Below are positions 27,635 through 59,312 of a stretch of DNA of 64,000 nucleotides, piece by piece. The translations under genes were made by a program, and so were the position numbers. Source of the stretch: a virus; IMG/VR virus record IMGVR_UViG_3300008267_000265, positions 1-64,000 of that record; one strand, given 5' to 3'. Positions within the stretch are counted from its first letter, which is position 1, and every line of letters starts with the position of its first letter. The notes beneath the pieces were generated by a model that saw nothing but the letters and a program-made list of their open reading frames with translations, ran no database searches and was not told the origin of the DNA.

Positions 27635-30475
27635 TTAAGCTACACCAGCAACTTGTAGGTCAGATACATACACCTTACCATAGAATTCAGGACGAACCAT
27701 TTTCTTAGCGTAACGAGTCATGATACCTTTACGTGGAGTGAAGGTAGTTGGATCGTAGATAAGAGGAGTCATGATCAATGGAACATAAGGAGCGTAAACA
27801 GCACCAGTCTCCAAGAATTGGTTACCTCTGAAGCCCATCAAGATGGTGTTTTCAGTCATGTATGGATTCTTGTAAACTTTGTAACGGCTGTTCAAAGAAC
27901 CAATTTTCTGTACGCCAAATGCATACTTCATTGTATCTGCTGCACCATCAGTATCAGCTGCAAATCCAGGAATTGATTCCAAGATAGTAGCTACTGTTGG
28001 AGAACATACTAAGAAGTTAGCACCACCACGCAAAGTCAACTGGTGAATTTTGTTAGATACAGCTTGAAGCTTAATACCTAAAGTTTGGAACCAAGACATT
28101 TGATTGTAGTATGCACCAGCAGTGTTGCTTACATAAGCGGTACCAGCTGCATTGATTTGATTACCAATCTGAGCAGACCAATTAGCAACTGTTGGAGCAT
28201 TTTCAATCAACATATCCATGATTTCCAAGTCAATTTCCAAAGAAATGTACTCAGACAACATACCAGTCAATTCAGCTTCAGCATCCAATGAGTGGTAAGC
28301 ATTCAAGTCTTGAGCAAATTCTGGAGTCCATTGTGCTTTCAACTTACGAGTTTTAGCAGAAATGGTTTCAGACTTCATCTGAACATTGATTTCTGGAATA
28401 ACGATCTGAGTTGCAGAAGCAGCGTTTGGATTAGAGAATGGAGTTGGGGTATCGTTTGGAGCATCTTCGAAGTCACCACGAGTTTGGAAGTTAGTAGCTT
28501 TGTTGTACCATACTGCAAGTGAACCTGTGCAAGCTTCGATAGCTGCTCTTGTACCACTAACAAAGAAAGTCAAATTACCACCACTTAAAACAGTGAAGTC
28601 GTTAATTGTAGTTGATGGAGCGATAACTACACCAGCACTTTGAGATGAATACAATTCAAAAGCACGAACACCGTTTGAATCAATTGATCCTGTCAAAGAT
28701 GATGTTGGAACTGTGATAGCCATCATAGTAACAGTTGCACCAGCGATTGACGCTGAGTAATCCGCGTTAAAGTTAAGTTGTGCATAGGTAGCTGGTGCTA
28801 TACTAATAGACGCAGAGCTAACAGATGCAGAGAATTGGTTGATTGAGTAACCAAAACGACCTTGACCGTAAAGACCACCGTCAGCAGTGTTACCAAATCC
28901 GCTATTTGCAGTTTGGGTTAAGTTACCATACAATGAGTTTCCAGCACTGAAAGGCTTAGGAACGTTGTTACCGTATTGGAAATCTAGGTAGAATACCAAT
29001 CCAGCAGGCAAGTTCATTGGTTGAACAGAAACGAACTCTTTAGCAGCGATCTGACCGAAGATCTTACGAACCAACGGAAGAGCTACACCAGCCCATTGCT
29101 CACCATTACCTGGAGTGAAAGTAGCACCGTTTGTTACGTTACCACCTGTTGATGATTGTTCCATCACCAATTGTTTTGCTTGGTTTTCCAAGATAGTAGC
29201 CATGTTGTTTTTGTCGTAGTCCTTAAGACCTTCCAACAAACCAGATTTGGCCCACTTCTTTACAAGCTTCTGGCTAACACCAAGTTGATCTTGGTAAGGG
29301 CCAGCAAGCACTTGCCATCTGTTTACGAAGGCGTCTGCTTCAACAATTGGACGAGCTGGGGCGTTTCCAATTGGTTTTGATGCGAAACCAATAGATTCTT
29401 TAATAGATGACTTTTTAGATTCACCTATAGATTCCATTAATGTTTTGTAGGTATTCTCAACTTCTTTAACCGATGTTACTCTATCAAATGCATTGATAAC
29501 CTTAGTCTTTTGAGCTTCGTTAAGATTTTTAGCTTTGAAGATTTTATTTACGTAAAGCATTTTGGCATTGAACAAATTAACTTCGTTAAGTTCTGCTTTA
29601 AGGGCTTTGATAGTCCTAATAGCTTCATTCAACTCTTTCTTTACTTCTTCAACCGCATAAGAATCAGCAGCTTTAGTTTGGATCTGTCCACCTGGGATGT
29701 GTCCTGGTTCAGCAGCTTCTTCCATTTTCTTTTCGTCTTCTTCAAGCTCAGCCAGAATTTCTTCAAGAGTGATCTCTTTCATTTCTTCGTCGTCTGTGCC
29801 TAAAGTAGCCGCCATGTCAGTACCTGCGTCTAAGTCACCTGCTGGTGCTCCGCCGCCTTGCATCTGCGTAAATACATCACGGATGATGTCTTTTAGCTCG
29901 CCAACTTTCAGTTCAATAACTTCTTCTTCATCAGTTACTGGACCACCGTCGTCATCGCCTGCTGGTAATTCTGTGTCTGCTTCTTCAGCATCTTCTTCAT
30001 CACCTTCGTCTTCATCAGCTTCGTGTAGTTTGTAGTCACTGTGAGATACCTTGTCTGATTCGCTGTAACTACCGTTTTTGTTGCCAGATTTTTTTCCAGC
30101 CTTTTCAGTGTAAACTGATTCTTTGCCTTCTTCAATTGATTCATCTTTCATGTCACTTCCGTCCATGTCTTCTGACAAGGCGTTTAGTTCAGCTAAGATT
30201 TCATCAAGAGTAGATTCGTCCATTCGATCTGAATCTTCTGTGTGCATTGATTCGTCCGTTCCTTCTTCCATGTTAGTACCTTTTTCGTCCATTGATTCTT
30301 CAATGTCCTCTTCAATTTGGTCGTCCATGTCTTCAGAAAGTTTTTGACGCATCATTTCTTTGATCTGTGGCTCAAAATGTTCCGCGAGAGTCGTTCTAGC
30401 TGCAGCCATAGCCGTCTCACGTACTGCTTTTGCATCCAAGATCGCTTGTCTGTACAAGTCTTGATTGCTTTCCAT
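27635..30475 (-). CDS. gp23: Scaffold (gp22-like, about 29302-30475) joined in frame to major capsid protein (T4 gp23-like, about 27635-29300)
   Basis: Capsid motifs VSVQPMNLPAGLVFYLDF, AKTRKLKAQWTPEFAQDL, YAPYVPL, FTPRKGIMTRY; acidic coiled-coil scaffold ending RWQVLAG. The fusion is likely a deletion artefact. Confidence 0.9.
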   Translation of the reverse strand: MESNQDLYRQAILDAKAVRETAMAAARTTLAEHFEPQIKEMMRQKLSEDMDDQIEEDIEESMDEKGTNMEEGTDESMHTEDSDRMDESTLDEILAELNALSEDMDGSDMKDESIEEGKESVYTEKAGKKSGNKNGSYSESDKVSHSDYKLHEADEDEGDEEDAEEADTELPAGDDDGGPVTDEEEVIELKVGELKDIIRDVFTQMQGGGAPAGDLDAGTDMAATLGTDDEEMKEITLEEILAELEEDEKKMEEAAEPGHIPGGQIQTKAADSYAVEEVKKELNEAIRTIKALKAELNEVNLFNAKMLYVNKIFKAKNLNEAQKTKVINAFDRVTSVKEVENTYKTLMESIGESKKSSIKESIGFASKPIGNAPARPIVEADAFVNRWQVLAGPYQDQLGVSQKLVKKWAKSGLLEGLKDYDKNNMATILENQAKQLVMEQSSTGGNVTNGATFTPGNGEQWAGVALPLVRKIFGQIAAKEFVSVQPMNLPAGLVFYLDFQYGNNVPKPFSAGNSLYGNLTQTANSGFGNTADGGLYGQGRFGYSINQFSASVSSASISIAPATYAQLNFNADYSASIAGATVTMMAITVPTSSLTGSIDSNGVRAFELYSSQSAGVVIAPSTTINDFTVLSGGNLTFFVSGTRAAIEACTGSLAVWYNKATNFQTRGDFEDAPNDTPTPFSNPNAASATQIVIPEINVQMKSETISAKTRKLKAQWTPEFAQDLNAYHSLDAEAELTGMLSEYISLEIDLEIMDMLIENAPTVANWSAQIGNQINAAGTAYVSNTAGAYYNQMSWFQTLGIKLQAVSNKIHQLTLRGGANFLVCSPTVATILESIPGFAADTDGAADTMKYAFGVQKIGSLNSRYKVYKNPYMTENTILMGFRGNQFLETGAVYAPYVPLIMTPLIYDPTTFTPRKGIMTRYAKKMVRPEFYGKVYVSDLQVAGVA

Positions 30476-45249: not shown

Positions 45250-46053
45250 TTATTCGTCGTCGTCTGGAAATAGTTGGTGTGCTTTGCTTGTATCGATTTT
45301 CATGAATTTATTTACATCCTTTGGATCAGCTATGACATAGAATAAGCCGTCTTGCTCTTCTTCAGATGCTTTTCTTGTTCTGTGATTACCGTCTATCAAG
45401 ATCCACTCTGTCTTTTTTGATTCTGGATCTTCGAACTTTACTACGATTCCAATTGGCTTGCTGTAATCTATCTTCATAGCAGCTACCTTTGTAGGTTCTG
45501 CTACACTAAACTCAGGATGTGATAACTGCTTCATCATATATGGCTTGAATGGCTTAATGTTGCTTTTAACCTTTCCTGACTCAATCATTTGGTAAGCCCT
45601 TGTTACATCAAACAAATACCTACCGTTGTATGCTGAGAATATTTCATTTTCTGGTTTGATCTTAGCTTCGCTCATCATCTGCGATGACGCATCTAGATCA
45701 TAAACACTTAAATTCAGCTTACCGTAATCTCTCATTAAGATACCTGCCATCGCATTTGCTTCGTTCTCAATCTCCGATCCAGTATCACCTGAGTTAGTTG
45801 CGATCATACCAAGCTCGTTCTGTCTGTGGTGTACCAGTTCATGTGCCAAACTTCTACACACATCTGCTAAATTTCTGCCTGGGTAGTACAGTCTTATTTG
45901 GTTCTCATGCACACTATACTCACCGTATGATCTAAATTGCTCAACAAAGCTTCTATCATTTATCAGTTTAATCACAGGTAGCGACTGTATGTTTAACTCT
46001 TCTTTACAGTATCTAATAAAGTGTTTTATTATATCAAGCTTGTTTTGGTTCAT
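45250..46053 (-). CDS. HExxH metallopeptidase-like domain fused to ParB/Srx-like domain
   Basis: RSLAHELVHHRQ...ENEANA and ILIDGNHR. Confidence 0.65.
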   Translation of the reverse strand: MNQNKLDIIKHFIRYCKEELNIQSLPVIKLINDRSFVEQFRSYGEYSVHENQIRLYYPGRNLADVCRSLAHELVHHRQNELGMIATNSGDTGSEIENEANAMAGILMRDYGKLNLSVYDLDASSQMMSEAKIKPENEIFSAYNGRYLFDVTRAYQMIESGKVKSNIKPFKPYMMKQLSHPEFSVAEPTKVAAMKIDYSKPIGIVVKFEDPESKKTEWILIDGNHRTRKASEEEQDGLFYVIADPKDVNKFMKIDTSKAHQLFPDDDE

Positions 46054-46726
46054 TTGGTATAGGTGGTGCTTTAGGTATAGGTGGTGCTTCAGGTGTTGCT
46101 GGTTCAGCCGGTGCTGGTTCTTCTTGCGGTTCTGGTTGCTCTTCCGGTGGCTGAATTGTTGCTGTCAGCATTTGAAATATTTTTGGAGCGAATCCTTTAT
46201 TGTAAGCTGCTTCTGGGATTGTTGTTTTGAATCCCTCATAATCACGCTTTCTCAAAAGCTCTCTAACGTAGTACGAATTAACTCTACCATCCTTCTCCTG
46301 TACTGAGATTGTCTTTAGAATGTTTGGGTATCTTTGTCGTAGACTTTTCATGTATTCCTGATCATCCTTCTCATCTTCTCCTCCTGCTACGTAGATTGCT
46401 TTTAGATCCTCTTTACCTGCCAAGTATTTAAAGATATCTTCTACTGGACTATCCTCTTCGGCTATTCTTACTTTGATCTTTGGATTTGGTTCTGCCTTCA
46501 AAAACATCTTCCACACTTGCAGTGACTGCTCTGGTGTGAGGCCTTCTTCAGTTTTTCTGCTTATTATAACAACTACTTCTGTTATATAATTTCTGGATGT
46601 GAGATTTTTAGCAGCTTTAAAGTGACCTTTATGAGGTGGCTTGAAACCTGCTGGATAAAAGCAGATGCCTGCTTCGTTTACAATCTCTTCAACTATTAAT
46701 TTGGCTATTGATGTGTAGTCAATCAT
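46034..46726 (-). CDS. Cytidylyltransferase-like (HxGH) nucleotidyltransferase
   Basis: FYPAGFKPPHKGH motif. Confidence 0.7.
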   Translation of the reverse strand: MIDYTSIAKLIVEEIVNEAGICFYPAGFKPPHKGHFKAAKNLTSRNYITEVVVIISRKTEEGLTPEQSLQVWKMFLKAEPNPKIKVRIAEEDSPVEDIFKYLAGKEDLKAIYVAGGEDEKDDQEYMKSLRQRYPNILKTISVQEKDGRVNSYYVRELLRKRDYEGFKTTIPEAAYNKGFAPKIFQMLTATIQPPEEQPEPQEEPAPAEPATPEAPPIPKAPPIPNEPKQA

Positions 46727-48201: not shown

Positions 48202-48619
48202 CAGGCTGTTCTTCCAGCCATGCGTCCGGAATCTTTTTATCGGCGTACGGTATGCCTAGTGCTTCACACCAACTGCCATAGGTTGTCTTTGATCTCTTGG
48301 ATATTTTTGTATTGGAGTTGCTAAATACGAATCTAATATCAAGCTCTGGGTGTTGTTCTTTAATCAGCTTGTGCTTCTTTCTATCTGCTAGTACGAATCT
48401 ACCTTTTGTTTCTACAATAATTCCGTTCCATAGCTTGAAATCGGGTAAGTAGGTGTGATCTTTAGCGGGGACTGTATATTTTACAGTATTTGCTTTGTCT
48501 TCGTAGTCGTAATATATCTTTTGTTGTTGTAGTTGCTCTGCAACCGCTTCTTCTAATCCGCTGCGGTATCCGTGCTTTATTGCTCTTGCTCTCGCACTAA
48601 CCTTTTTCTTTTTTTTCAT
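48179..48619 (-). CDS. T7-type endonuclease I (Holliday junction resolvase)
   Basis: YRSGLEE, YLPDF, ETKGRF, HPELDIRFVF, KTTYGSWC. Confidence 0.92.
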   Translation of the reverse strand: MKKKKKVSARARAIKHGYRSGLEEAVAEQLQQQKIYYDYEDKANTVKYTVPAKDHTYLPDFKLWNGIIVETKGRFVLADRKKHKLIKEQHPELDIRFVFSNSNTKISKRSKTTYGSWCEALGIPYADKKIPDAWLEEQPVANTKKK

Positions 48620-48628
48620 AAGTTTGTT

Positions 48629-49000
48629 TTAAGAATCCCATCTGACTATGAACGTCATATCCGTATTGGATGGGATCGGGTATGGGGTCGCCAATTTACC
48701 AACTACTAGTAGATCGTTATTTTCATTGTAAAGACCTATGGTAGTTGCATATGGACGGAAGTCTGATCCCGTAATATTATCAGCTAATGTACCATCTATA
48801 ATTTGACCATTTATAGCCGTTTGCCCTGGTGGTGCAAAAAACGGTAATGCTGCTGAGGAGGTTATACCTGATACCCTAGCAAATACTGATGGATTCTGTG
48901 AGTAATTAAAGTCGTTTTCTAAAACTCTACACTTAACCTCGTTCTGATAAATTGTGGTTTCAGAGGTAAGTCTTAGTTGGTATGGTATTGTTGTTGGCAT
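48629..49000 (-). CDS. Baseplate protein C-terminal-like domain, paralogous to the end of 59325..60410
   Basis: FNYSQNPS...PYATTIGLYNENNDLLVVGKLATP compared with YNYSSNPS...YITTIGMYNDNTELLAVAKLSKP. Confidence 0.7.
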   Translation of the reverse strand: MPTTIPYQLRLTSETTIYQNEVKCRVLENDFNYSQNPSVFARVSGITSSAALPFFAPPGQTAINGQIIDGTLADNITGSDFRPYATTIGLYNENNDLLVVGKLATPYPIPSNTDMTFIVRWDS

Positions 49001-49019
49001 GCTTATAAATAGATTATTG

Positions 49020-49964
49020 CTACTGTTTTACTTCAACTACAGCTATATTTGCTGCATACGAGTACTCATCTGTCATTGGAAACAGCTCTTTACTCTTTGC
49101 ATAATGTCTTATCATATTTGCAAATTTTTGCCTGTCCATGTCTTTTTTAAAACAGAATTTATGAATAAGAAAATCGCAGAGTCTGTGAGCATCTTCTATT
49201 GGTTGTACGTTCGTAACAAATTCTTCTTTTGAATAAATTATTCCATACGCATTGTAGAAGGTGCCTGGAGCATACTGCACGTACGGCACTCCTTTTAGGA
49301 GCGCATCCACTGCAAAAGTAGAGTTGAAGGATACACAAAATTCTGCATTGTCTATTATACTCAACCTTGCTTTTCCATACTTACATCCATACTGCTTTAC
49401 AATGGCTTCTAACTCTGCGTAGATTTCTCCAGAATTCCATGGATGAAATTTAACAAATAGTTTATCTCCGTAAAATTTACAGCAATCTCTTACAAACTCT
49501 AAGTACTTCTTTGTACTTGTTACGCTCAGTATCGATCTATCTGTTGGATTCTGTAGTATCAAGACCGGGCCAGTCCAGCTAGCGATCTCACTTTCATTGT
49601 ATGTTGCATTGTATTTAGATTGCTGATGGGCTGGAAGACTTTGTATCAACTCTCTAGCACTTTTTTTATCTTCTAGATCAAAGTCAGCCACTGCCTTATA
49701 ACCAGCTGCTGTGTTTAATGAAATAGTCTGGTAGTTGCCAACTGTATCTATAAAGGATGCGTTGTGAAAAAAGCCTGTTTCCATCACACCGTATCTATCG
49801 CCGTACTGAGCAGTATACGGCTTAGTTCCCCAGTAGACAACATACTCGTAATCTGTTTTACTCTTGTGGCTAAAAGTGAATCCTAGCTCTTGAGCCTCTG
49901 CTTCTGTTGTTAGCGGTAGCAGTCCGTAGTTAGTTGCGTATGATGGCAGTACTATACTAGACAC
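49020..49964 (-). CDS. KpsS/KpsC-like (GT107-type) glycosyltransferase
   Basis: LQNPTD (QxxxD), VKFHP, NSTFAVDALLKGVP. Confidence 0.65.
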   Translation of the reverse strand: MSSIVLPSYATNYGLLPLTTEAEAQELGFTFSHKSKTDYEYVVYWGTKPYTAQYGDRYGVMETGFFHNASFIDTVGNYQTISLNTAAGYKAVADFDLEDKKSARELIQSLPAHQQSKYNATYNESEIASWTGPVLILQNPTDRSILSVTSTKKYLEFVRDCCKFYGDKLFVKFHPWNSGEIYAELEAIVKQYGCKYGKARLSIIDNAEFCVSFNSTFAVDALLKGVPYVQYAPGTFYNAYGIIYSKEEFVTNVQPIEDAHRLCDFLIHKFCFKKDMDRQKFANMIRHYAKSKELFPMTDEYSYAANIAVVEVKQ

Positions 49965-50911
49965 GACTTACTTGCTGTTTCAATGATCTCTCTAACATAG
50001 TTATATGTGCAGCTATTAGAGCTATAATCTTCTTGTTGTATACTGTATGGTAGCTCAGTCATGTACAAACCCTTGTAAAACTTTCTACCGCAGTTACACA
50101 CAATACCTGCATTGTGAAAGATTGGACATTCATCCCATCTTTCAACCGGATCTGTTGCCCATGCAAAGTTTAGTTCTGGGACTACTTTGACTTCGTTACC
50201 TCTCAACCAGCTATTCCATAGCACTGCCCACATATCTGCACACCATATTTGCAGTTCATGGTAGTTAGGTTCTGTTTCTTTTACCTGGTAGTTTATTTTA
50301 TTAATCTCAAAAAACATAGTTTCAGCATCTCTTTCAACCTTATGCCAGTAGTCTGCATCAACATTTTTAAGAATGTATTGTGCACCTCCTGAGTGTGCGT
50401 TGTTTTGTTTAGGTATTTCCGGATCGATACCAACTATCTCACACATCTTTTCATAAACACCGTAGCCTTTTGACTGGATATACGTGTAGTTTATGTAGCT
50501 GTTTGTGTCGCTAACGTACCAAACATCGTCGTTTAGTAGATGATCAAAAGTAGGTTTTCGTGTAAATAGTGCATCACAGTCGTGATAATATATCGCAGCA
50601 TCCTTCAATTCAGGGTAAGCTTCAAAGTGCTGCTTCAAGATATTGGGGCGGACTGATGAAATGTAGTGAATTGGGTGTGGTCTTGTGTCTCTGTAGAAGT
50701 GAAAATTAACAGTTGTATAGTGCTTTTTTAATTTATCCCAAGCACTCACTGCTTCTTGAGTGTTGGTTCCGTCTATCGGATTCCAAGCAACTAGGATATC
50801 AATCTTACTTCCATCTATTCCATGCTTTAGGAAGTTGTTTATTGCAACTTCAACTTGCCATGCATAGTAGACTAGGCGTGGTTGAACGCACATGTACCGT
50901 AACTCTTTCAT
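49952..50911 (-). CDS. GT-A glycosyltransferase resembling peptide O-glycosyltransferases (GT95/GT96-like)
   Basis: RPNILKQHF, HDCD (DxD), GGAQY, WCADMWA. Confidence 0.55.
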   Translation of the reverse strand: MKELRYMCVQPRLVYYAWQVEVAINNFLKHGIDGSKIDILVAWNPIDGTNTQEAVSAWDKLKKHYTTVNFHFYRDTRPHPIHYISSVRPNILKQHFEAYPELKDAAIYYHDCDALFTRKPTFDHLLNDDVWYVSDTNSYINYTYIQSKGYGVYEKMCEIVGIDPEIPKQNNAHSGGAQYILKNVDADYWHKVERDAETMFFEINKINYQVKETEPNYHELQIWCADMWAVLWNSWLRGNEVKVVPELNFAWATDPVERWDECPIFHNAGIVCNCGRKFYKGLYMTELPYSIQQEDYSSNSCTYNYVREIIETASKSCLV

Positions 50912-50990
50912 AAACTATTTTATAATAAATAGCTTAGTATATATCTAAACGAAGAGCTATGTTGCTTTTAGTGTATTATATTTTTTGTTT

Positions 50991-53426
50991 TTATGTTATA
51001 GGATAATAGTTATTAGCCACTTCAGTAATATTAATTAGGGCTGATGCATATGTATAGGCACTTGGGTACAGTCCTGTAATGTTGGATGCTACTGACCCAC
51101 TTCCTATTAGCGTTGTACCACTAGATGGATCGGCTACTCCTTTCCATATAAATCTATAATATCGTGATCCATCTAAATTTAGTATACTGCTATAGTTAGT
51201 ACTTGTAACTGCGCCGTCAGGTGTGTATACCTCGTATATTCTATATGTAATCGGCATATCGCTCCAACCTATGTAACTTCCAGGTCTCGTTTGCATTCCC
51301 GTAACTATTACTTCACCAGCACTTACACCAACAGTTATTGATAGGTCTACTCTATAGACACCAGTAGTTGGTACATAAAATCCATCGCTACTATCGTATG
51401 TTATTCCTAATGAGTTTTGTATTTGTAATTGCGCTATAGCTTGATAGGTGTCTGCCGTGGTAAGATCCTGAGATGATGTACTGTATGCTGATATGTAGTA
51501 TGGATCGCGACTCGGCACTGCTGTTGATGCTGTAGCAAATACTTGTCCACTACTACTAATCATTAAAATGTTTGTTGGTAGTGTTACTGGTGTTTGTAGG
51601 TCTGGGAAATATATTGAGCCTGATAAATTAGTTGAGCCTGTTACCGTTAAATTATTTCTAAAGTTGCCATCACCGTCTACGTCAAAAGTATATGCTGAGG
51701 ATGTTGCTCCTACTATTAATTTAGATCCGTTTCCTCCAGTTTTAGTTCCAGATAGTGATGCACTAAGAGCTACTCTACCGTCATCAAAAATTGACAATAT
51801 ATCATTATAAGAGCCGAGTACGAGACCAGCTGTGTTTCTTTCTAAAGAATTAAATCTAACTCTATTTTGCGATTGAGTATTGCTACCAAACATCTGTATT
51901 TCAAATCCAGGATAGTAGGTTGAGGAGGCTGTTACATTACTATATCCAAATGCTATGGCAGCCCCTCCTGAGGTAAAGTTAGCAACTGATGTGTATACTC
52001 CCATCTTTAGGTCACCGTTTCTTTCACTAACTATATTCTCATATTGATTCGTAGCCATGCTACCTGCACCATTAATCGCTCTTAAAGAACCTGTTGCGTT
52101 TATTGATCCAGTCACTCTGTGTACGTCTGTTAGTGCGTTGCCTATTGTTACACCCGTTCCAGCCACAGCAAACTCTGTTATACTAGCGCTTGCAACAGTA
52201 AATACATTTCCTCCACCTATGTTTACACTGGCAGTTACTGACCCTGTTGCTATTTGCATTGGTGTTGTACTGACTACACTCAGCGCTGATGAAGCTGTTA
52301 TAAATAACTGTCCGCTATTATCCATCAGTACGACTTTATCGGCAGTATTTGAGTCTGTTAGGTTTGGAAATCCAACTGTACCGCTTACATGTAGCGTATA
52401 TAACGGTGTCCGAGTGCTGATACCAACTCTCGCACTTTGTACTGAACCTGAGAATGGATTTCCTGTGGTTGTACCGTATGATCCAGTTGCAAAGATCACA
52501 CCTCCTATGTTGATTGAGTTTCTAGATCCGCTTGGTAATGTAATGTTTGTACCGATGATGATGTTGTTGATGCCTACACTCCTCGGTCCCTGTGTAGCTT
52601 CGTAACCTGCGTAGTATCCTATGAAGGTCGAGTAGGATGCATTTATTGAGTACGCACCTGCGTTGTAGCCTATGAAGTTCGAGGATGATGCGGCAGAGGC
52701 ACTGTAACCTACCCCCGCTCCTATAAAATTTGAATAGTTTGCATTAATCGCTTTTTCACCTGCTCCGCTTCCGATGAAAGTCGAATAGGCTGCGTTTGTT
52801 GCTTGATATCCCGCTTGTGTTCCTATAAAAGTAGAATAAGATGCACTTACTGCTTGGTTTCCTGCAGAATTTCCTACAAAGTTTGAATTGTCTGCATGTC
52901 TTGCGTCGTTGCCCGTATTACTTCCTATAAAATTTGAGTTCGCTGCGTTAGTTGCTCCGAAACCTGCTAAGGCTCCTATAAAGTTTGAATTATACGCGTT
53001 CGTTGCTTGACGGCCTGCATTCAGACCTATAAAATTGGAATACTGGGCGTTTGTTGCACTTAGACCTGCTTGGTATCCTAGAAAGTTTGATATGTTTGCG
53101 TTTGTTGCATTACCACCCGCTTGATATCCTATAAAGTTTGACTCAGCTGCATTTGTTGCACCGTATCCAGCTCCTGTATTTAAAAACACTGAGTTGTTTG
53201 CTAGCGTTGCATTATACCCTGCATCTAGACCTAAGAAGATCGATTCCGTTGTATTAACGCCCGTGGTTGACGGGTCATATGAATATATTGTACTTCCAGT
53301 TGTTCGCACTGAACCTAATGGTCCTTCTAGAGCGTAGGATGCTGTACCGTGTAATGATCCTGTAAATCCTCTGGTTGCTATGATCGATCCTGTTAAGTCA
53401 ATTGATCCTGATAATATTAGTGGCAT
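50991..53426 (-). CDS. Fibre/adhesin with 17-aa SNFIGxxAGxxATNA repeats
   Basis: About 13 repeats, followed by a distinct C-terminal region. Confidence 0.7.
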   Translation of the reverse strand: MPLILSGSIDLTGSIIATRGFTGSLHGTASYALEGPLGSVRTTGSTIYSYDPSTTGVNTTESIFLGLDAGYNATLANNSVFLNTGAGYGATNAAESNFIGYQAGGNATNANISNFLGYQAGLSATNAQYSNFIGLNAGRQATNAYNSNFIGALAGFGATNAANSNFIGSNTGNDARHADNSNFVGNSAGNQAVSASYSTFIGTQAGYQATNAAYSTFIGSGAGEKAINANYSNFIGAGVGYSASAASSSNFIGYNAGAYSINASYSTFIGYYAGYEATQGPRSVGINNIIIGTNITLPSGSRNSINIGGVIFATGSYGTTTGNPFSGSVQSARVGISTRTPLYTLHVSGTVGFPNLTDSNTADKVVLMDNSGQLFITASSALSVVSTTPMQIATGSVTASVNIGGGNVFTVASASITEFAVAGTGVTIGNALTDVHRVTGSINATGSLRAINGAGSMATNQYENIVSERNGDLKMGVYTSVANFTSGGAAIAFGYSNVTASSTYYPGFEIQMFGSNTQSQNRVRFNSLERNTAGLVLGSYNDILSIFDDGRVALSASLSGTKTGGNGSKLIVGATSSAYTFDVDGDGNFRNNLTVTGSTNLSGSIYFPDLQTPVTLPTNILMISSSGQVFATASTAVPSRDPYYISAYSTSSQDLTTADTYQAIAQLQIQNSLGITYDSSDGFYVPTTGVYRVDLSITVGVSAGEVIVTGMQTRPGSYIGWSDMPITYRIYEVYTPDGAVTSTNYSSILNLDGSRYYRFIWKGVADPSSGTTLIGSGSVASNITGLYPSAYTYASALINITEVANNYYPIT

Positions 53427-53437
53427 CTGTTTTTATT

Positions 53438-55681
53438 TTATACTATTCTTATTGCTATAAAGTTTCCGCTTCTATATAACCCTCCTAACGGTACTCCACC
53501 TGCTGCGGCTGCAGTATCGTCTGCAAAATTCAAGCTTTGTGATACTTGTGTTAGTATTACCATGCCGTGATTGAATCTAGCAGATCCCGATACATCTAAT
53601 GATGCGCTTGGTGATACAATATTAATACCAACTCTACCGCCTGCTGATCCTGAGGATACAGTTGAGGTATTTGAATAGGACCCAGTTGCAAAGATCACAC
53701 CTCCTATGTTGATGGAGTTTCTAGATCCGCTTGGTAGGCTGATGTGGTTTCCAATTATAATGTTATTACTTCCTACTGTACGAATGGAATCTGTTGTTGA
53801 ACCTGCTTGATATCCTATTGCAATGTTATATGATGCGCTAGCTGCATAATAACCAGCAAATGTTCCTAAAAATACTGATCGAGATGCGAAGGTTGCATTG
53901 TTGCCTGCACCGTATCCGACAGCTGTTGTATTATCTGCTCCTGCAGCTTGTGTACCAGCAGAGTCCCCTACGAATGTTGAGAAGGATGCACTAAATGCTT
54001 GGAGGCCTGTATTTGTTCCTATGAAAACCGAGTTGTTTGCATTGGTTGCACCGTTTCCTGTGTTACCTCCTATAAAGCTTGAATTATACGAATTCGCTGC
54101 ATCATTCCCTGCACTACTTCCTATAAAGTTTGAATTGTATGCGTTCGTTGCTTGACCGCCTGCATTACTTCCTATGAAGTTTGAATTAGATGCGCTGTAA
54201 GCGGATATACCAGCAGCATATCCTATAAAGTTTGAGTAATACGCATTTACTGCACTCTGGCCTGTCTGACGTCCAATAAAATTTGAATGTGATGCGTTCG
54301 TTGCACTTCTACCTACATCGCTACCTATAAAGTTGGAGTATGATGCACTTGTTGCTTGTAAGCCGGTGGAATCTCCTATAAAGTTAGAATAAAATGCATT
54401 TGTCGATCCTGATCCAGCAGTTATTCCTATAAAATTAGAACCGCTGGCATTTGTTGCACCATACCCTGCATTAAATCCTAGGAAGTTTGATAGGATTGCA
54501 CTCACTGCTTGATATCCTGCATTTGTTCCTATGAAGCTCGAGCTGGCTGCGTTTGTTGCTTGAAAGCCTGCACTATTTCCTATAAAATTCGAGTTTGAGG
54601 CGCTTACTACTGATTGTGCTGCGTTTCGTCCTAAAAATATACCGTTTTGTGTATTTTGAGTTGAGAAAGTAGTTATCGATACCGGTGCTGTTGTGTATAT
54701 TGTACTACCTGTTACATTTATCGGATATGATGATGTTGTAGCAGTTGCTGTAGTTAGTGCATACGATGAGCTTACCGAATATGAACTAGTCAAAGCATAT
54801 GATGAGCTTACCGAATATGAGCTAGTCAAAGCGTACGATGAGCTTACCGAATATGAACTCGTTAGAGCGTATGAACTACTTAAAGCTGGATTTGTCGATG
54901 TGAATATTGAGCCAGTTACATAGCTAGCTGTGCCAAATAAAGATCCAGTTATTCCTTGGCTTACACTCAGCGATCCTGATATTACAGCTCCGCTGCCAGA
55001 TACAAGTAAACTGCCTGAAATGACTGCATCACCTGTGTAAGGAAAGGTTGGTGCTGCCACAAAAGCTGATGATGCTGTGTAGTAGACGTCTCCTGTCGTT
55101 TCGTCGTACACCAGTACATTATTAGCACCCGCGTTATCTAGATATCTAAAATTAACAGACCCGGTTACGCGTAGTGATCCGGTAAATTCATGTGTATTTG
55201 TTAGGAGGCTACCAAATCTTGATGAGCCTGTTACGTAGTCTACGCTCGATGTTACAAACTGTGTAAAGAGTGTAACTGTCGTTAGAGTACCGTTAATTAA
55301 GGCACTTGATGCTGTTATTGGTCCGTTTACATTTAGCGATCCAGTTATAGTAGCACCACTTCCTGATAGTCGTAGACTGCCTGTAATTACTGTATCTCTT
55401 AACCTTGTTGTTCCGTCTACATTTAGTGATCCAGTTATGGTAACACCGCTTCCCGATACTAATAAACTACCTGATATTACAGCATTTCCTACGTAGGGAA
55501 AAGTAGATATTCCACTACTATTTAGAGCATAGGACGCTGTAAATGCGTAACTACTGCTCAATACAGTCATTGAGCTCGTTTGAGCACTTGATATAAACGA
55601 GGATGATAGGTATAAAAAGTTATCATCCAGCTCCTGGTATGTGAGTGGTAATCCTTTGGTAAGTCTGAGTGTTAATGCCAT
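53438..55681 (-). CDS. Fibre/adhesin with 17-aa SNFIG repeats
   Basis: MALTLRLTKGLPLTYQELDDNF anchor; about 17 repeats; C-terminal AAAAGGVPLGGLYR. Confidence 0.7.
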   Translation of the reverse strand: MALTLRLTKGLPLTYQELDDNFLYLSSSFISSAQTSSMTVLSSSYAFTASYALNSSGISTFPYVGNAVISGSLLVSGSGVTITGSLNVDGTTRLRDTVITGSLRLSGSGATITGSLNVNGPITASSALINGTLTTVTLFTQFVTSSVDYVTGSSRFGSLLTNTHEFTGSLRVTGSVNFRYLDNAGANNVLVYDETTGDVYYTASSAFVAAPTFPYTGDAVISGSLLVSGSGAVISGSLSVSQGITGSLFGTASYVTGSIFTSTNPALSSSYALTSSYSVSSSYALTSSYSVSSSYALTSSYSVSSSYALTTATATTSSYPINVTGSTIYTTAPVSITTFSTQNTQNGIFLGRNAAQSVVSASNSNFIGNSAGFQATNAASSSFIGTNAGYQAVSAILSNFLGFNAGYGATNASGSNFIGITAGSGSTNAFYSNFIGDSTGLQATSASYSNFIGSDVGRSATNASHSNFIGRQTGQSAVNAYYSNFIGYAAGISAYSASNSNFIGSNAGGQATNAYNSNFIGSSAGNDAANSYNSSFIGGNTGNGATNANNSVFIGTNTGLQAFSASFSTFVGDSAGTQAAGADNTTAVGYGAGNNATFASRSVFLGTFAGYYAASASYNIAIGYQAGSTTDSIRTVGSNNIIIGNHISLPSGSRNSINIGGVIFATGSYSNTSTVSSGSAGGRVGINIVSPSASLDVSGSARFNHGMVILTQVSQSLNFADDTAAAAGGVPLGGLYRSGNFIAIRIV
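54765..54878. repeat. 36-bp tandem repeat, about 3 copies (SSSYALTSSYSV)
   Basis: GATGAGCTTACCGAATATGA recurs at 54765, 54801 and 54837. Confidence 0.85.
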
Positions 55682-55722
55682 TTTTTGTAGTTTCTTCCTA
55701 TATAAATATCACAACTACCTTA

Positions 55723-57552
55723 TTATAATTGTCCACCATCAATTAGATTCCAAGTAGCATCAGCTATTATGTTGTTTCTAGCTGTTGCTGCTGATGATGG
55801 ATATTGGATTGTTCCAAAGTTTACAGTCAGGTCTGGTTGTAGTTCTATTAATGACCAACTATTCAATATATCACCGTAATTAACTGCTGAGTAATTAGCT
55901 GATGTTTTACCAGCCATGAAGTTGATAAAGTTTCTAACGTTTGTAACATTCCAATTATTGATTGGTTGGTTGAAATTAGTAGCGTTTTGGAACATAGACT
56001 CCATGTTTGTAACAAATGCTACTTCCCATATAGCTGTGTTAGGGGTTGTATTGATTGGTTGATTGAAGCTAGTAGCATTCTTAAACATATAGCTCATGTT
56101 AGTTACTCTCAATGTATTCCAAGTTGATATACTATAGTTGAAAGCAGTTGCGTCTTCAAACATATGCGACATGTCAGTAACCAGCTCAGTATTCCACGTT
56201 GATAACGGTCTGTTAAATACAGTTGCACCGTTAAACATGTAAGACATATCTGTTACTTTAGCTACGTTCCATGCTCCTACCGGACTATTGTATAAAGGCG
56301 TATCTTGGAACATAGCTTTCATTGTAGTAACATTGTTAGTATACCAAGTTGCTACATCACCTAGGACAGCTCCAAAATTTGCTGCACCGCTAAACATATA
56401 AGACATGTCTGTTACATCGGTTGTAGTCCAGCTTGTCAAATCTTGATCAAACGAAGCTGCTGCACTGAACATACCTGACATGTTTGTTACATTGCTCACA
56501 TTCCAATTGCCAATGCTTTGATTAAAGAGACTAGCTCCTCTAAACATATCGCTCATATTTGTCACGTTTGCTAGCGTCGATCCAACTCTCTCCCAATTAG
56601 ATAGTGCTCTGTTAAAGGAGCTAGCACCTTGGAACATCCCTGCCATGTTTTGAACATTTGTGACATTCCAGTTTGGTAGTATTGTGTTAAATGTAGTAGC
56701 GAACGCAAACATGTATGACATATCTCTAACAAGACTGGTATCCCAGCTGTTAAGGATTTGATTGAATACCATTGCGTTGTAGAACATATATGACATGTCT
56801 TTAACCCTACTCGTATTCCAGCCACTAACATCGTCGTCAAACTGTTCACAGTTCTTGAACATACTTGCCATGTTTGTCACTCTAATTGTATTCCAACTAG
56901 TAATATTAGCAATTGTTGTGAGACTTATGCAGTCCTCAAACATTCCACTCAAGTTCGTTGTATTCCCTAAAATAAGTGTGTCCGTTACTGCTGATAAATC
57001 TAGATTGGTACACCCTTTAAAGTAATTTCCATCATTTCCTAATCTAAGTGGTCCCCACTCTAGTATACTTGTTAATTTTCTCTCACTAACGCTTATGTTC
57101 CAGCCAATACCATTAATTACTCCGTAAATTTGAACAGTGTATGTGCCCGCTACCACGTATGTATGAAAGGCGTCCGTATCATTCCAAGTTGTCACATTTA
57201 CGACTGGGCTTCCGTCGCCCCAATCAACGTAAAAGTCATATGTACCGTTGCTTGTAAGTGGTAAGCTAATTTGTTCGTAAGGGACCGTTGTTGTCCACGT
57301 ACTTCTGAAATACTGTATAGGTATTGGTATGTCTTGGTAGTTATCACATGTTGCATTTGTTGATTGAACTCTAACTGAGACAGCACTTCTTGGTACTTGT
57401 ACTGTAAAACCACTACCTAAAAAACCACTTGGTGGTACACCTATTGCTAGTAGCATTAGATTTCCATTTGCATCCACGGAATATACGTCGAACGGTCCTG
57501 TTCCAAGACCATTGGCTGTTAATTGTACTTGTACTGTATAATACTGTGCCAT
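55723..57552 (-). CDS. PKD-like domain plus DUF285/BspA-type repeat surface protein
   Basis: VDWGDGS; about 13 repeats of W(N/D)T..V..M..MF. Confidence 0.85.
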   Translation of the reverse strand: MAQYYTVQVQLTANGLGTGPFDVYSVDANGNLMLLAIGVPPSGFLGSGFTVQVPRSAVSVRVQSTNATCDNYQDIPIPIQYFRSTWTTTVPYEQISLPLTSNGTYDFYVDWGDGSPVVNVTTWNDTDAFHTYVVAGTYTVQIYGVINGIGWNISVSERKLTSILEWGPLRLGNDGNYFKGCTNLDLSAVTDTLILGNTTNLSGMFEDCISLTTIANITSWNTIRVTNMASMFKNCEQFDDDVSGWNTSRVKDMSYMFYNAMVFNQILNSWDTSLVRDMSYMFAFATTFNTILPNWNVTNVQNMAGMFQGASSFNRALSNWERVGSTLANVTNMSDMFRGASLFNQSIGNWNVSNVTNMSGMFSAAASFDQDLTSWTTTDVTDMSYMFSGAANFGAVLGDVATWYTNNVTTMKAMFQDTPLYNSPVGAWNVAKVTDMSYMFNGATVFNRPLSTWNTELVTDMSHMFEDATAFNYSISTWNTLRVTNMSYMFKNATSFNQPINTTPNTAIWEVAFVTNMESMFQNATNFNQPINNWNVTNVRNFINFMAGKTSANYSAVNYGDILNSWSLIELQPDLTVNFGTIQYPSSAATARNNIIADATWNLIDGGQL

Positions 57553-57572
57553 TTAGAGTTTAATTAGTTTTA

Positions 57573-59312
57573 TTAACAGACGATATCAACAAAGCCTTGA
57601 CTTGGACATGGGTGACTACCTTGAACACCTGCTCTTTCAGCATTGTATGTTGGTCCAGTAGCTCCCCCCTCTAGTTGAGCTAATCCAAAGCTAGTACATA
57701 CAAATGGCTCTGTAATAGGTGTAGTAGATCTCACTATAAACTGATCTCCATATGATTCACAGTTCTCTGAGTCGAATTGCCTTGCGTTATAATAATAATA
57801 TAGTATGCCACTAGTAGTCGTTGTAGTTGTTGTACTTGTCGTAGTTGTTGTTGTACCGGTTGGGCATGGTCCTTGTGGTGTTGCTGAACCGAAGCCACTT
57901 AATCTTACTACGGTTCCTGTTCTAGCACAAACAAATTTAGGAGATGCTGTAGAATTGACAGTTATAGGTAGTAGGTCGTTTTTATCACAATCTCTGTACT
58001 GGAAGGTTGTCTGTGCGAACGGTGATGCTAATCTATAGTAGGTACATGTCACTGCTGCAGTAGTCGTTGTAGTCGTTGTACTTGTTGTTGTTGTTGTTGT
58101 AGTTGGCGGTGCAGTAGTCGTTGTAGTTGTTGTACTTGTTGTTGTTGTCGTTGTTGTAGTTGGTACTATAACACTACCTGCTAAGAAACAATCTGCTATA
58201 CAGCCTATTCCCGATAATAGACTAACGTTAAATAGTATTGGATCGTAATTTATTTCGTTGTTGCAAACGCAGACTTCTATTTGATTATCATCATTCGTTA
58301 ATTGGACCGTTTCTGTATTGCCCGTACTACACGCAGTGTATGTAAATGTTGCTGCAGTAGGTCCTAGATACTGTACGTAATATGTTCTACATATACACGG
58401 ATCAGGTGTCACTGTAATAGTTACTCTACCACGATTACTTGTTAGTAGGCAGCCCTCGTTGAAAGTACTATCTACAGTATAATCTACTGTGTAAGTTCCA
58501 ATTGTTGTTGAATTGAGTGTGATAGTGCCATCTAAATTGTTCGTAAATAACGGTGCATTACTTCCATATAGTACTACTGAGGATGGTACTATTGTGCCAC
58601 TCCCTGCTATATCGTTTGCTATAACGTTAATTGTTTTTGGAACAGTTGATTTTGCATATGTTCCAAAATCTGGTATTGCAGTCGGTGCTATAGGGAATAC
58701 ATTCTGATAATTAGGGTTTGTTATTACTGCAAATCCTTGTTTATATAAGACATTACCTACGTGCGTTACTGGACCGTATACATACCAATCTGTAAATTCA
58801 GGTACGTAGGCTTGCTGTATAACGTATGGAAGTGCTGATATATCCAACAAGTTACCGTTTCCATCGTCTACAATAACACCCAGTGATGAGCTAGCCCAGA
58901 AGCCGTATCTTGAGATTTGTTGACCGAATACGTTTCTAGGGATTGATATTGCAATAATGCTATCTCCTGATCCTGTTGGAAAATTTCTTATATCTGCATC
59001 CTCTGTTCCGAATGCTGCTGACGATTGTAGTGAATTATCAAAGCTGGATGTGGTGGTTAGATAGGAGCCTGATAGTTGTGCGGTAGTTACTGACCCAGTG
59101 AGGTAGTTTGAATAAAAAAGTTGCCTGATTGATCTGTAAATCAGCGTCTCTTCAGGCACTGACCCTGTTACTGTCACAGCTCCATTAACTCCTTTGTAAA
59201 CCGCTATACCTACTCCAGGTGCTGTATTGCAGTCGTATGAAGAAGTATACTTTAGTTTAATTGGAGTAGTTATAACATCTGATACCCTAAGGCTATTTGA
59301 CGATCTACTCAT
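57573..59312 (-). CDS. Baseplate-associated protein with Ig-like domain, Cys-rich modules and poly-Thr linkers
   Basis: ISIPRNVFG...VDDGNGNL...VGNVLY N-terminal domain; PTAIPD...NVIAND Ig-like domain; three T(6-9)ST(7) tracts. Confidence 0.65.
   Translation of the reverse strand: MSRSSNSLRVSDVITTPIKLKYTSSYDCNTAPGVGIAVYKGVNGAVTVTGSVPEETLIYRSIRQLFYSNYLTGSVTTAQLSGSYLTTTSSFDNSLQSSAAFGTEDADIRNFPTGSGDSIIAISIPRNVFGQQISRYGFWASSSLGVIVDDGNGNLLDISALPYVIQQAYVPEFTDWYVYGPVTHVGNVLYKQGFAVITNPNYQNVFPIAPTAIPDFGTYAKSTVPKTINVIANDIAGSGTIVPSSVVLYGSNAPLFTNNLDGTITLNSTTIGTYTVDYTVDSTFNEGCLLTSNRGRVTITVTPDPCICRTYYVQYLGPTAATFTYTACSTGNTETVQLTNDDNQIEVCVCNNEINYDPILFNVSLLSGIGCIADCFLAGSVIVPTTTTTTTTSTTTTTTTAPPTTTTTTTSTTTTTTTAAVTCTYYRLASPFAQTTFQYRDCDKNDLLPITVNSTASPKFVCARTGTVVRLSGFGSATPQGPCPTGTTTTTTSTTTTTTTSGILYYYYNARQFDSENCESYGDQFIVRSTTPITEPFVCTSFGLAQLEGGATGPTYNAERAGVQGSHPCPSQGFVDIVC

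Follow-up and report, generated by a model that had tools for sequence, protein, structure and literature searches.

A two-enzyme cassette that may glycosylate the threonine-rich fibre protein of its own phage

In the reading that we favour, a late-expressed two-enzyme cassette of a freshwater Flavobacterium-type phage would glycosylate the phage's own Thr-rich fibre protein in the cytoplasm of its Bacteroidota-type host; we put the probability of this at roughly 0.6. A 579-residue fibre protein would then probably be coated with an acid-capped, mucin-like glycan; which protein accepts the sugars, which donors supply them, which step comes first and how the fibre is affected are what we infer. 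The window is the whole stretch of 64,000 nucleotides analysed (positions 1 to 64,000 of IMG/VR record IMGVR_UViG_3300008267_000265). The source contig measures 79.6 kb, about half of a genome (CheckV 49%), so that sugar-synthesis or base-modification genes could sit in the missing part.

All genes and elements described here lie on the minus strand. The two glycosyltransferase-like genes, GT1 (49952-50911; 319 aa, ATG start) and GT2 (49020-49964; 314 aa, GTG start), overlap by 13 nt, with the GTG start of GT2 inside the last codons of GT1; this overlap suggests joint expression. Read along the coding strand, the region begins with the gene of the 579-aa poly-Thr protein, the candidate acceptor (57573..59312), and continues with a three-gene fibre cassette. 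The cassette is opened by a 609-aa DUF285 (BspA-like) repeat protein (55723..57552; PF03382, E 2.9e-127), a homologue of which is present in only 1 of 80 related loci, followed by a 747-aa fibre with SNFIG-type repeats (53438..55681), a member of the variable cassette with its own TATTTATA box, and an 811-aa fibre with the same type of repeats (50991..53426), directly upstream of GT1. The poly-Thr gene and GT1 are thus 6.7 kb apart in the window, with these three genes intervening. Behind GT2 follows p123 (48629..49000), a small structural-type protein which is the last gene of the cassette, is preceded, at 11 nt, by a TATTTATA box of its own, and is homologous to the C-terminus of gp105 of Flavobacterium phage immuto and of a 361-aa protein; only then come endonuclease I, primase and YqaJ exonuclease. 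GT1 and GT2 are hence embedded between fibre genes and p123, with the DNA enzymes beyond, which places the pair at the border of the structural block and outside a base-modification block. An earlier note on this DNA had described two overlapping glycosyltransferase-like genes downstream of fibre genes and not in a DNA-modification block, and both parts of that description hold.

A TATTTAT box, which the same note had seen above the pair, lies at 50925..50931 (coding strand 50931-50925), 20 nt before the ATG of GT1. Along the coding strand of the contig there are 37 copies of the motif, 23 of which are located at most 60 nt upstream of a start codon, with only 4.5 kb of DNA being non-coding; this placement is far above chance. 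Besides GT1, a further 22 genes have the box in front of them; most are virion genes, with sheath, portal, terminase and fibre genes among them. We regard it as a candidate late promoter element, and count the box common to GT1 and the virion genes as support for late timing.

The 579-aa protein carries the mucin-like poly-Thr tracts that had been described for this gene, in the form of three runs of 15-16 residues (T8ST7, T7ST7 and T6ST7S). Tracts 1 and 2 (58059..58160; residues 385-400 and 404-418) form the arrangement T8ST7-APP-T7ST7, and tract 3 (57810..57854) covers residues 487-501. The runs are encoded by mixed ACA/ACT/ACG/ACC codons, which argues that they are selected at the protein level and are not a DNA repeat, and no other protein of the contig has such tracts. 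The protein consists of an N-terminal domain common to its relatives, one Ig-like domain (Big_9-type, a weak lead with scores below 0.8) and three modules rich in Cys, each roughly 70 aa long, with the poly-Thr linkers between them. Its N-terminal part is kept in 40 related loci, every time upstream of GT1, and resembles the N-terminus of immuto gp105. That the protein belongs to the virion we infer from synteny only.

Co-occurrence with Ser/Thr-rich proteins, anticipated in the earlier note, is strongly positive for GT1. GT1 relatives were examined on 80 viral contigs, and the ORF directly upstream carries poly-Thr tracts in 63 of 79 cases, compared to 33 of 880 other ORFs (3.75%). The pairing is kept in 27 of 35 clusters after de-replication at 80% GT1 identity, and is seen in two contig groups that have no other genes in common. 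The remaining 16 loci lack a poly-Thr gene directly upstream; three of them have a truncated, tract-less homologue. In unrelated cultured phages with a GT1 homologue (iLp84, Semele, phiCTP1, PT94, Enterococcus 4995_1, VPE25 and Chryseobacterium MA9V-3), poly-Thr was found on a virion or neighbouring protein in all seven checked, and in six of them the tract is in the gene directly upstream; the exception is VPE25, whose major tail protein, encoded about 1.8 kb downstream, carries the poly-Thr. The GT1 homologues of the cultured phages adjoin capsid or tail-tube genes. The nearest cultured relative of our phage, immuto, has a portal 59% identical and a complete genome which contains neither GT1 nor a Thr7 run; its gp105 corresponds to the 579-aa protein and p123 joined in a single, unsplit chain.

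The predicted structure of GT1 (pLDDT 97.1) matches glycogenin (Z 15.6), LgtC (14.8), Skp1 AgtA (14.6), UGGT (14.3) and GlyE (13.5) best among solved structures, with the first four matches covering residues 1-319 and Foldseek E-values against the PDB around 1e-7; the LPS enzyme WbbM is also among the matches. The nearest solved folds are thus those of GT8 and GT24, of GT-A type. The motif series D111-x-D113, W223, M227, W228 and H266 is conserved in the family: in an alignment of 48 sequences D113 and H266 are invariant, and D111 is nearly so (HDCD). GT1 matches the unnamed phage protein family phrog_4417 over its full length (E 4.8e-60; residues 5-311 on positions 2-290 of 293 of the profile), and this phage-centred family comprises 847 representative clusters. 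No Pfam family, Glyco_transf_8 included, matches GT1 or 47 relatives at E ≤0.1. GT1 is predicted to be a soluble, retaining GT-A glycosyltransferase, which we describe as GT8-like by fold and do not file as a GT8 member.

For GT1, the earlier note had read the RP...DxD-type motif series as a sign of kinship to the eukaryotic peptide O-glycosyltransferases of GT95 and GT96. The motif series is indeed present and conserved in the family, but membership in GT95/GT96 (HPAT/SGT1) was not borne out: the Pfam HPAT family PF23452 matches neither GT1 nor its 47 relatives, and the nearest solved folds are those of GT8/GT24. The PDB matches of GT1 include no HPAT or SGT1 structure with which the fold could be compared. 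A six-frame search with PF23452 (E ≤10), covering this record together with five phage records that bear GT1, found nothing either, a weak result, as the control also matched nothing anywhere. A feature search of the ESM Atlas gives, as second-nearest among the named cluster sets, one with 22 hits and a score of 0.96 in which 10% of the members have PF23452; this language-model neighbour list hints at kinship to HPAT, as a lead only.

GT2 (pLDDT 93.8) is, by its predicted structure, clearly KpsC/WbbB-like with intact catalytic motifs. Matches to WbbB (Z 16.1) and KpsC (Z 15.1) extend over residues 3-312; over all KpsC and WbbB structures Z is 14.7-16.1 with 252-267 aligned residues, with KrkA at about Z 10 and the next unrelated GT-B at Z ≤10.3. 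The first 22 Foldseek ranks are taken up entirely by KpsC, WbbB and KrkA (E 2.7e-9), so that GT2 shows the modified GT-B architecture specific to this group, though its identity to the solved β-Kdo transferases is only 11-16%. Q138xxxD142 and H174-P175 are invariant in 44 sequences, and N214-S215 is also present and conserved in the family. In a profile alignment with KpsC (6mgc), D142 falls on the Asp of QTFND and H174-P175 on VKVHP. Peptide numbering identifies the former as Asp160, which is the proven nucleophile within the invariant QXXXD motif of KpsC (PMC10148158). In the HP motif of this enzyme group, the His protonates the phosphate of CMP. E62 of GT2 is invariant in the family and may be the counterpart of Glu66, the general base in the N-terminal domain of KpsC. 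In Pfam, GT2 has no PF05159 (Capsule_synth) match at E ≤0.1 and a weak match to polysialyltransferase PF07388 (E 0.0012), and a cellular homologue from Chthoniobacter, 40% identical to GT2, reaches 21.1 bits with PF05159 against a cut-off of 20. Both proteins are glycosyltransferases of the kinds that had been guessed, and for GT2 the earlier note had named the KpsS/KpsC CMP-Kdo transferases from its QxxxD, HP and NST motifs.

The position behind GT1 is a variable slot. In relatives it is occupied by GT6 (16 loci), GT2-family (11 loci), Gly_transf_sug (5 loci) or radical SAM/SPASM genes; the partner families seen there are also found fused to GT1 domains, and in a contig with flanks about 92% identical, 564 other bases stand precisely where GT2 would be. 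The picture of a primer and an extender, which the earlier note had drawn, fits this slot and the domain fusions, whereas GT1 and GT2 themselves are not a conserved pair: GT2 is absent from 80 of 80 GT1 loci and GT1 from 9 of 9 GT2 loci, so that the two-step order would rest on adjacency, the 13-nt overlap and analogy.

These same counts bear on an alternative that we consider unlikely, namely that GT2 acts in parallel, adding Kdo or another ulosonic acid straight to Thr/Ser or to another virion protein without any need for GT1. In 4 of the 9 loci where a GT2 relative occurs without GT1, a poly-Thr protein is encoded upstream of it, the upstream partner of those relatives is a different, GT2-family enzyme, so that the GT1 product would be dispensable, and GT1 does without GT2 in 80 loci. 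A glycosyltransferase is nonetheless found directly before GT2 in 7 of the 9 loci, which fits an extender; the known β-Kdo transferases use sugar acceptors (PDB titles; PMC10148158), and the overlap with GT1 speaks for joint expression.

The fold matches could also be read as those of enzymes which transfer a sugar and Kdo onto LPS or capsule intermediates of the host, with the poly-Thr neighbour being a coincidence of the fibre neighbourhood. The closest solved structures for GT2 are capsule and O-antigen enzymes, its cellular homologues (Planctomycetaceae, Chthoniobacter) sit in polysaccharide gene clusters, and LgtC and WbbM are LPS enzymes. Such remodelling of the envelope, as well as the purposes it might have, e.g. 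a superinfection block or keeping progeny off debris, appears to us quite improbable. Gram-positive hosts possess neither LPS nor Kdo, and GT1 homologues occur in small phages of such hosts, temperate as well as lytic, where they are located between capsid/tail-tube and connector genes, always with poly-Thr tails. The poly-Thr enrichment (63/79 vs 3.75%) is specific to the gene beside GT1 and not a feature of fibre genes generally; immuto lacks GT1 and poly-Thr together; neither GT1 nor GT2 has a membrane segment; and the box before GT1 is that of late virion genes.

Glycosylation of DNA (hydroxymethyl-pyrimidine hypermodification) against restriction, with the variable slot diversifying the DNA glycan, has in its favour that phage GT-A/GT-B arrays build varied 5hmC glycans, including GT8-like second-step enzymes (bioRxiv 10.1101/2023.12.21.572611), that DNA enzymes lie just beyond p123 and that half of the genome is missing, but it seems to us scarcely credible: a thymidylate-synthase-type hydroxymethylase was not found in this record or three related records (52-70% complete), GT1 homologues are located inside the head-tail module of 39-kb temperate phages, the DNA-acting GT-A enzymes of the same preprint resemble JGT and TarP and not GT8, and the poly-Thr association would be left without explanation. 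A Tet/JBP search of those four records was also empty, which proves little as the control genomes were unmatched as well.

The glycosylation of the 579-aa protein proposed for GT1 and GT2 would resemble several known systems in part. With the protein- and glycoprotein-acting enzymes of GT8/GT24 (glycogenin, Skp1 AgtA, UGGT, GlyE), GT1 has in common a GT-A fold over the whole protein (Z 13.5-15.6), the DxD motif with a later invariant His, and a cytoplasmic, soluble nature, while identity is only 8-13%. GlyE acts on the pneumococcal Ser-rich repeat adhesin PsrP, which receives its glycans in the cytoplasm from a primer enzyme and variable extenders. The same logic is proposed for the GT1 cassette, with the difference that GlyE is an extender and GT1 would be the primer. 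Plant and algal HPAT (GT95) and SGT1/SERGT1 (GT96) place the first sugar directly on hydroxyls of Ser-/Hyp-rich repetitive proteins, as proposed here for GT1. GT2 is similar to the retaining β-Kdo transferases KpsC/KpsS (GT107, PF05159), WbbB (GT99) and KrkA in its whole-length fold and its QxxxD and HP motifs; it differs in being a single 314-aa module within a phage fibre module, and its proposed acceptor is a protein-linked glycan instead of the end of an O-antigen or a Kdo chain on a lipid; the solved relatives all use lipid-linked or polysaccharide acceptors and not proteins. Virion glycosylation is known from mycobacteriophages Che8, Corndog and Myrna (Freeman et al. 2023, Cell Host Microbe 31:1216, as reported in PMC12619734 and PMC13313380). 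As far as those reports describe it, both systems have phage-encoded glycosyltransferase genes within or beside structural genes and glycosylate their own virion proteins in the cytoplasm (here proposed from genes alone), and the C-terminal tags of capsid and tail-tube proteins in cultured Firmicutes phages with GT1 homologues are a further likeness. Our phage differs in its freshwater host phylum of Bacteroidota type, in its pure Thr runs, which are internal linkers of a fibre protein, and in a cassette that includes a Kdo-type transferase.

Based on this, we suggest that GT1 would start the glycan by attaching a sugar to hydroxyl groups in each of the three poly-Thr linkers that the 579-aa protein contains; its DxD motif makes a metal-dependent reaction with a UDP-sugar donor probable. 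TGS-type tripeptides would not be needed as target sites. GT2, translationally coupled to GT1 and with Asp142 as nucleophile, would then move a CMP-activated ulosonic acid onto the GT1-primed glycan, most simply from the CMP-Kdo of the Gram-negative host. The gene of one GT2 relative directly follows that of a CMP-sugar synthetase (CTP_transf_3), and none was found in this half-genome. By analogy only, Thr-dense acceptors, a priming GT-A enzyme of the retaining kind and a cap made from a CMP-activated acidic keto-sugar recall the mucin-type O-glycosylation of animals with its sialic-acid cap, and would yield a 'bottle-brush' that is extended, charged and resistant to proteases; the enzymes of the two systems belong to unrelated families, and the proposed process would take place in the bacterial cytoplasm with a Kdo-type cap. 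The product would be a baseplate-attached fibre with stiff, protease-resistant, negatively charged mucin-like spacers between its distal Cys-rich modules, and it is speculation that such a coat might serve for shielding or capsule mimicry.

The two glycosyltransferase genes of the window lie on the minus strand, GT1 (319 aa) at 49952-50911 and the KpsC/WbbB-like GT2 (314 aa) at 49020-49964; they overlap by 13 nt, with the GTG start of GT2 placed within the last codons of GT1, so that both families are joined in one overlapping operon. On the coding strand a TATTTAT box at 50931-50925 stands 20 nt ahead of the GT1 start. The overlapping pair, this box and the threonine runs of a nearby 579-aa protein were among the features from which the earlier note proposed a virion O-glycosylation system, and all of them are confirmed here. 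Across the contig, the coding (minus) strand holds 37 copies of TATTTAT(A) and the other strand 8; 23 of the 37 coding-strand copies sit 11-56 nt upstream of start codons (counted within 60 nt), although only 4.5 kb of the 79.6 kb is non-coding, and a chance match can therefore be set aside. The genes preceded by the box are mostly virion genes, among them those for sheath, portal, terminase, a fibre and the small structural-type protein p123 (48629-49000, minus strand), and also GT1. A longer form, TATTTATA on the coding strand (TATAAATA on the plus strand), has 16 copies in the window, in a single orientation throughout, and p123 has its own such box 11 nt upstream. We propose TATTTAT(A) as a candidate late promoter element for these related phages; a promoter and terminator scan of 48400-51200 returned nothing exceeding shuffles.

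The window belongs to a viral contig of 79,661 bp, estimated by CheckV to be ~49% complete, with all genes on the minus strand and a virion set that includes T4-type major capsid, portal, large terminase and tail-sheath proteins. The portal is 59% identical to that of Flavobacterium phage vB_FspM_immuto (160,410 bp; immuto below), the closest cultured relative, and near-identical DNA was found in freshwater and lake metagenomes of several studies; the host is thus most likely a freshwater Bacteroidota bacterium, Gram-negative and CMP-Kdo-making. The major capsid protein (27635-30475) is 946 aa long, and its best Gp23-domain match spans residues 688-934 only, which implies a very large additional portion, either N-terminal or inserted. 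A separate 230-aa protein (46034-46726), conserved in 12 related loci and without a significant Pfam match, combines a Pro/Glu-rich C-terminal tail with an N-terminal GFKPPHKGH motif that resembles the HxGH signature known from nucleotidyltransferases; a role as nucleotidyl- or cytidylyltransferase is conceivable.

GT1 belongs over its full length to phrog_4417 (E 4.8e-60), a phage family that carries no annotation and counts 2,734 homologues in 90% clusters and 847 clusters at 50% identity. Neither Pfam nor NCBIfam has a match for GT1, and an NCBIfam search of six proteins gave nothing useful. The GT1 model (pLDDT 97.1, built from 48 sequences) finds its best solved-structure matches, without exception, among GT8/GT24-type retaining GT-A enzymes: glycogenin (Z 15.6), LgtC (14.8), Skp1 AgtA (14.6), UGGT (14.3), WbbM (14.2) and GlyE (13.5). 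Since these cover protein-, glycoprotein- and LPS-acting enzymes, the acceptor cannot be named from the fold. D113, H266 and K280 are invariant in the family and D111 nearly so, a pattern predicting a metal-dependent DxD enzyme; no membrane segment was found in GT1. The GT95/GT96 kinship suggested earlier found no confirmation, in that the Pfam HPAT family (PF23452) went unmatched by GT1, by 47 relatives and by five homologue-bearing phage records, the sole hint being a set of ESM Atlas neighbours with HPAT in 10% of its members; searches for HPAT and DUF7164 (PF23741) likewise gave no matches, a weak result given that the genome-search controls were also unmatched. A PDB profile search with the GT1 alignment returned TALE-repeat proteins only, and we reject this kinship as an artefact of repeat summation: the matches cover positions 139-168 (alignment A2; GT1 residues ~150-180), set MC.IVGID...NSGGAQ of the GT1 profile against LCQAHGLTPEQVVAIASNSGGKQA, and consist of many weak repeats with a summed E of 1.7e-6.

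Gene neighbourhoods were taken from IMG/VR loci, GenBank phage records and a single scan of genome contigs. The GT1 relatives of 80 IMG/VR loci are 45-67% identical to GT1, and a threonine run was defined as an [ST] run of at least 7 residues with at least 5 Thr. Such runs are present in the ORF immediately upstream of GT1 in 63 of 79 loci, compared with 33 of 880 other same-strand ORFs (at least 100 aa) of the same loci, and after de-replication the pairing is found in 27 of the 35 clusters formed at 80% GT1 identity and in 13 of the 20 formed at 70%. About 40 of the 80 loci keep the gene order of the window (baseplate wedge, p446, p114, p1548, p218, p361, poly-Thr protein, GT1, a variable stretch, p123, primase); between the window and the remaining ~40, BLAST finds nothing else in common. 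The pairing also recurs in unrelated cultured phages, of which we list seven. Directly upstream of the GT1 homologue lie an Ig-like protein with long terminal Thr runs in Lactobacillus iLp84 (where the capsid protein also ends in ...PTTTTTTTSK), the poly-Thr proteins gp074 and gp075 in Lactobacillus Semele, a tail-tube protein with a poly-Thr C-terminus in Clostridium phiCTP1 (gp11 has poly-Thr too), a 110-aa protein with a T14 run in Staphylococcus PT94, a capsid protein with a poly-Thr C-terminus in Enterococcus 4995_1 and a 428-aa poly-Thr protein in Chryseobacterium MA9V-3; in Enterococcus VPE25 the poly-Thr is on the C-terminus of the major tail protein, ~1.8 kb downstream. The complete immuto genome has neither a GT1 homologue (E up to 1) nor, on either of its strands, seven ACN codons in a row. 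At three comparison loci (L045 10954-11985, L048 10954-11985 and L052) the counterpart of the 579-aa protein measures only 176 aa and lacks a Thr run; at L045 and L048 the gene after GT1 encodes a radical SAM/SPASM enzyme in place of a glycosyltransferase, and a fusion protein (P0206) combines the same two partners. Among the papers covered by full-text searches, none ties threonine runs to phage glycosyltransferases. We predict with good confidence that GT1 acts on poly-Thr tags.

In the window the candidate acceptor is the 579-aa protein (57573-59312, minus strand), the sole contig protein with such threonine runs; it has three, each of 15-16 residues and in mixed codons, and all six runs of seven ACN codons in the contig fall inside its gene. 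Residues ~305-579 (57573-58400) form three ~70-aa modules with Thr linkers between them, each with 4-6 cysteines in a C.YY...F.Y..C pattern; the modules match no known family and might serve in binding. An Ig-like domain is a lead only, from ESM Atlas hits scoring below 0.8, and a PHROGs search gave no match for this protein or for GT2. Immuto gp105 (357 aa; L098 8372-9445) matches the N-terminus of the 579-aa protein at 35% over 83 aa and p123 at 41% over 114 aa, p123 resembling the gp105 C-terminus. In the lineage of the window, a gp105-type gene thus seems to have been split, with ~8.5 kb inserted between its halves; the insert would comprise the poly-Thr modules, a fibre cassette of three genes (609, 747 and 811 aa), GT1 and GT2.

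The stretch behind GT1 is variable. In relatives, one to six genes of many families lie between GT1 and p123, including GT6 enzymes (16 loci), GT2-family enzymes (11), Gly_transf_sug (5), radical SAM/SPASM (2) and several unknowns, and longer proteins fuse GT1 domains with these partner families; the KpsC-like GT2 of the window is in none of the 80 loci. A 4,956-nt contig from the metagenome run X17 matches p123 and GT1 at ~90-92% identity, with GT2 replaced exactly by 564 unrelated bases (joint 49011 to 49953). Near-identical GT2 fragments occur in runs from two other studies. The varied families and the X17 replacement indicate that GT1 is constant and that the next position is an exchangeable cassette, even among close strains.

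In a Foldseek search with the GT2 model (pLDDT 93.8), retaining beta-Kdo transferases fill ranks 1-22, and VIA places residues 3-312 on WbbB (Z 16.1) and KpsC (Z 15.1), with unrelated GT-B enzymes at Z 10.3 or less. A PDB-sequence profile search returned KpsC only, aligning QNPTD on QTFND and KLHP on KVHP; Q138, D142, H174, P175 and E62 are invariant in the family. In KpsC, Asp160 of the invariant QXXXD motif is the nucleophile and Glu66 the base, and the HP motif is common to KpsC and the CMP-sialic-acid enzymes (PMC10148158). On this alignment and these roles, the catalytic set of GT2 appears complete, with E62 as candidate base. We found 75 homologues, a few of them fused to methyltransferase domains. 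A GT2-family transferase directly precedes the relatives of GT2 in 7 of 9 viral loci and a CMP-sugar synthetase does so in L008, and threonine-run proteins lie just upstream of the cassette in 4 of the 9. The phage contig L008 (6629-12881) encodes, in order, a mucin-like Thr-rich protein, a sigma-factor-like protein, an unknown gene, the CMP-sugar synthetase, the KpsC-like enzyme, a methyltransferase-like protein and a GDP-mannose 4,6-dehydratase, adjoining prohead protease and terminase genes; no CMP-sugar synthetase was found in the half-genome of the window or in three relatives. Cellular homologues (~40% identity) come from Planctomycetaceae, Verrucomicrobiota and Chthoniobacter, inside polysaccharide gene clusters; those at L112 5251-7539 and L113 5629-6744, from Planctomycetaceae and Chthoniobacter flavus, have pyruvyl transferase, methyltransferases and other glycosyltransferases as cluster neighbours. 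One homologue exceeds the Pfam Capsule_synth cut-off and one is fused to a Gly_transf_sug domain. The Planctomycetaceae and Chthoniobacter homologues are a possible source of the phage gene. Searches of GenBank phages gave no match by tblastn with GT2 or by blastn with the GT1 and GT2 genes, which leaves metagenomes and a few bacteria of the PVC group as the only known sources of the GT2 family proper. We think it quite probable that GT2 transfers a CMP-activated ulosonic acid.

From the observed folds, motifs, gene coupling and comparative associations we infer an acceptor, donors, an order of steps and a benefit, and suggest, at a probability of roughly 0.6, that GT1 primes the poly-Thr linkers of the 579-aa protein and GT2 adds an acidic Kdo-type cap late in infection. 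The two genes would be read together from the box common to virion genes. GT1 would place the first sugar, from a UDP-sugar, on the linker threonines, in an alpha linkage if the fold analogy holds; GT2 would draw on CMP-Kdo from the host LPS pathway, or on another CMP-ulosonic acid, form an Asp142 adduct and hand the sugar to the growing glycan, much as WbbB caps O-antigen. The glycosylated linkers might then keep the three Cys-rich distal modules off the baseplate and shield the linkers from proteases.

The gene neighbours of GT2 relatives show no BLAST homology to those of GT1 relatives. The independent distribution of the two families would suit a scheme in which the enzymes act in parallel and GT2 glycosylates protein directly, which we regard as unlikely. 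Remodelling of the host envelope by the pair agrees with the relatives of GT2, yet it leaves unaccounted for the GT1 homologues within head-tail modules of Gram-positive-host phages, the specificity of the poly-Thr pairing and the joint absence of GT1 and Thr runs in immuto, and we hold it to be improbable. DNA hypermodification, for which multi-GT arrays on 5hmC set a precedent (bioRxiv 10.1101/2023.12.21.572611), deserves very little credence, as it would leave the poly-Thr link without explanation and no thymidylate-synthase-type hydroxymethylase was found in four partial records (a Tet/JBP search of the same records was also negative, weakly so, its controls being unmatched as well).

The nearest known system to priming and capping of a poly-Thr protein is the virion glycosylation of mycobacteriophages, as described in papers citing it. 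Compared with that description, the tag here consists of pure Thr runs, the host group is another, and the candidate system has an exchangeable extender slot and a Kdo-type enzyme. To our knowledge, self-glycosylation of phage particles has been shown experimentally only in actinobacteriophages. New in the window are the union of both families in a single overlapping operon, a predicted KpsC-like enzyme with its catalytic Asp intact, the strain-level gene replacement and the control offered by immuto; cultured phages with a GT1 homologue and tagged proteins exist, and the close cultured relative immuto is without both.

The evidence points to a much wider modular system, in which virion proteins bear Thr-run tags, hundreds of phage lineages encode a dedicated primer and the extenders are exchangeable. 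More tentatively, and with the odds somewhat against it, we speculate that GT1 (phrog_4417) is a general poly-Thr O-glycosyltransferase of tailed phages in Bacteroidota, Firmicutes and uncultured aquatic lineages, that poly-Thr runs are portable acceptor tags, and that the slot is a swappable 'glycan serotype' cassette, here holding a Kdo transferase. If so, this would be the first known protein-linked, Kdo-capped glycan, and on a virus particle; the acceptors of beta-Kdo transferases would widen from lipids and polysaccharides to glycoproteins, and glyco-engineering would gain a soluble enzyme of the cytoplasm together with a short peptide as its tag. It would also account for a very common 'hypothetical protein' of phage structural modules, and would give a new picture of phage surfaces, of their charge, stiffness, protease resistance and stickiness to mucus and debris, and of their recognition by immune systems and grazers.
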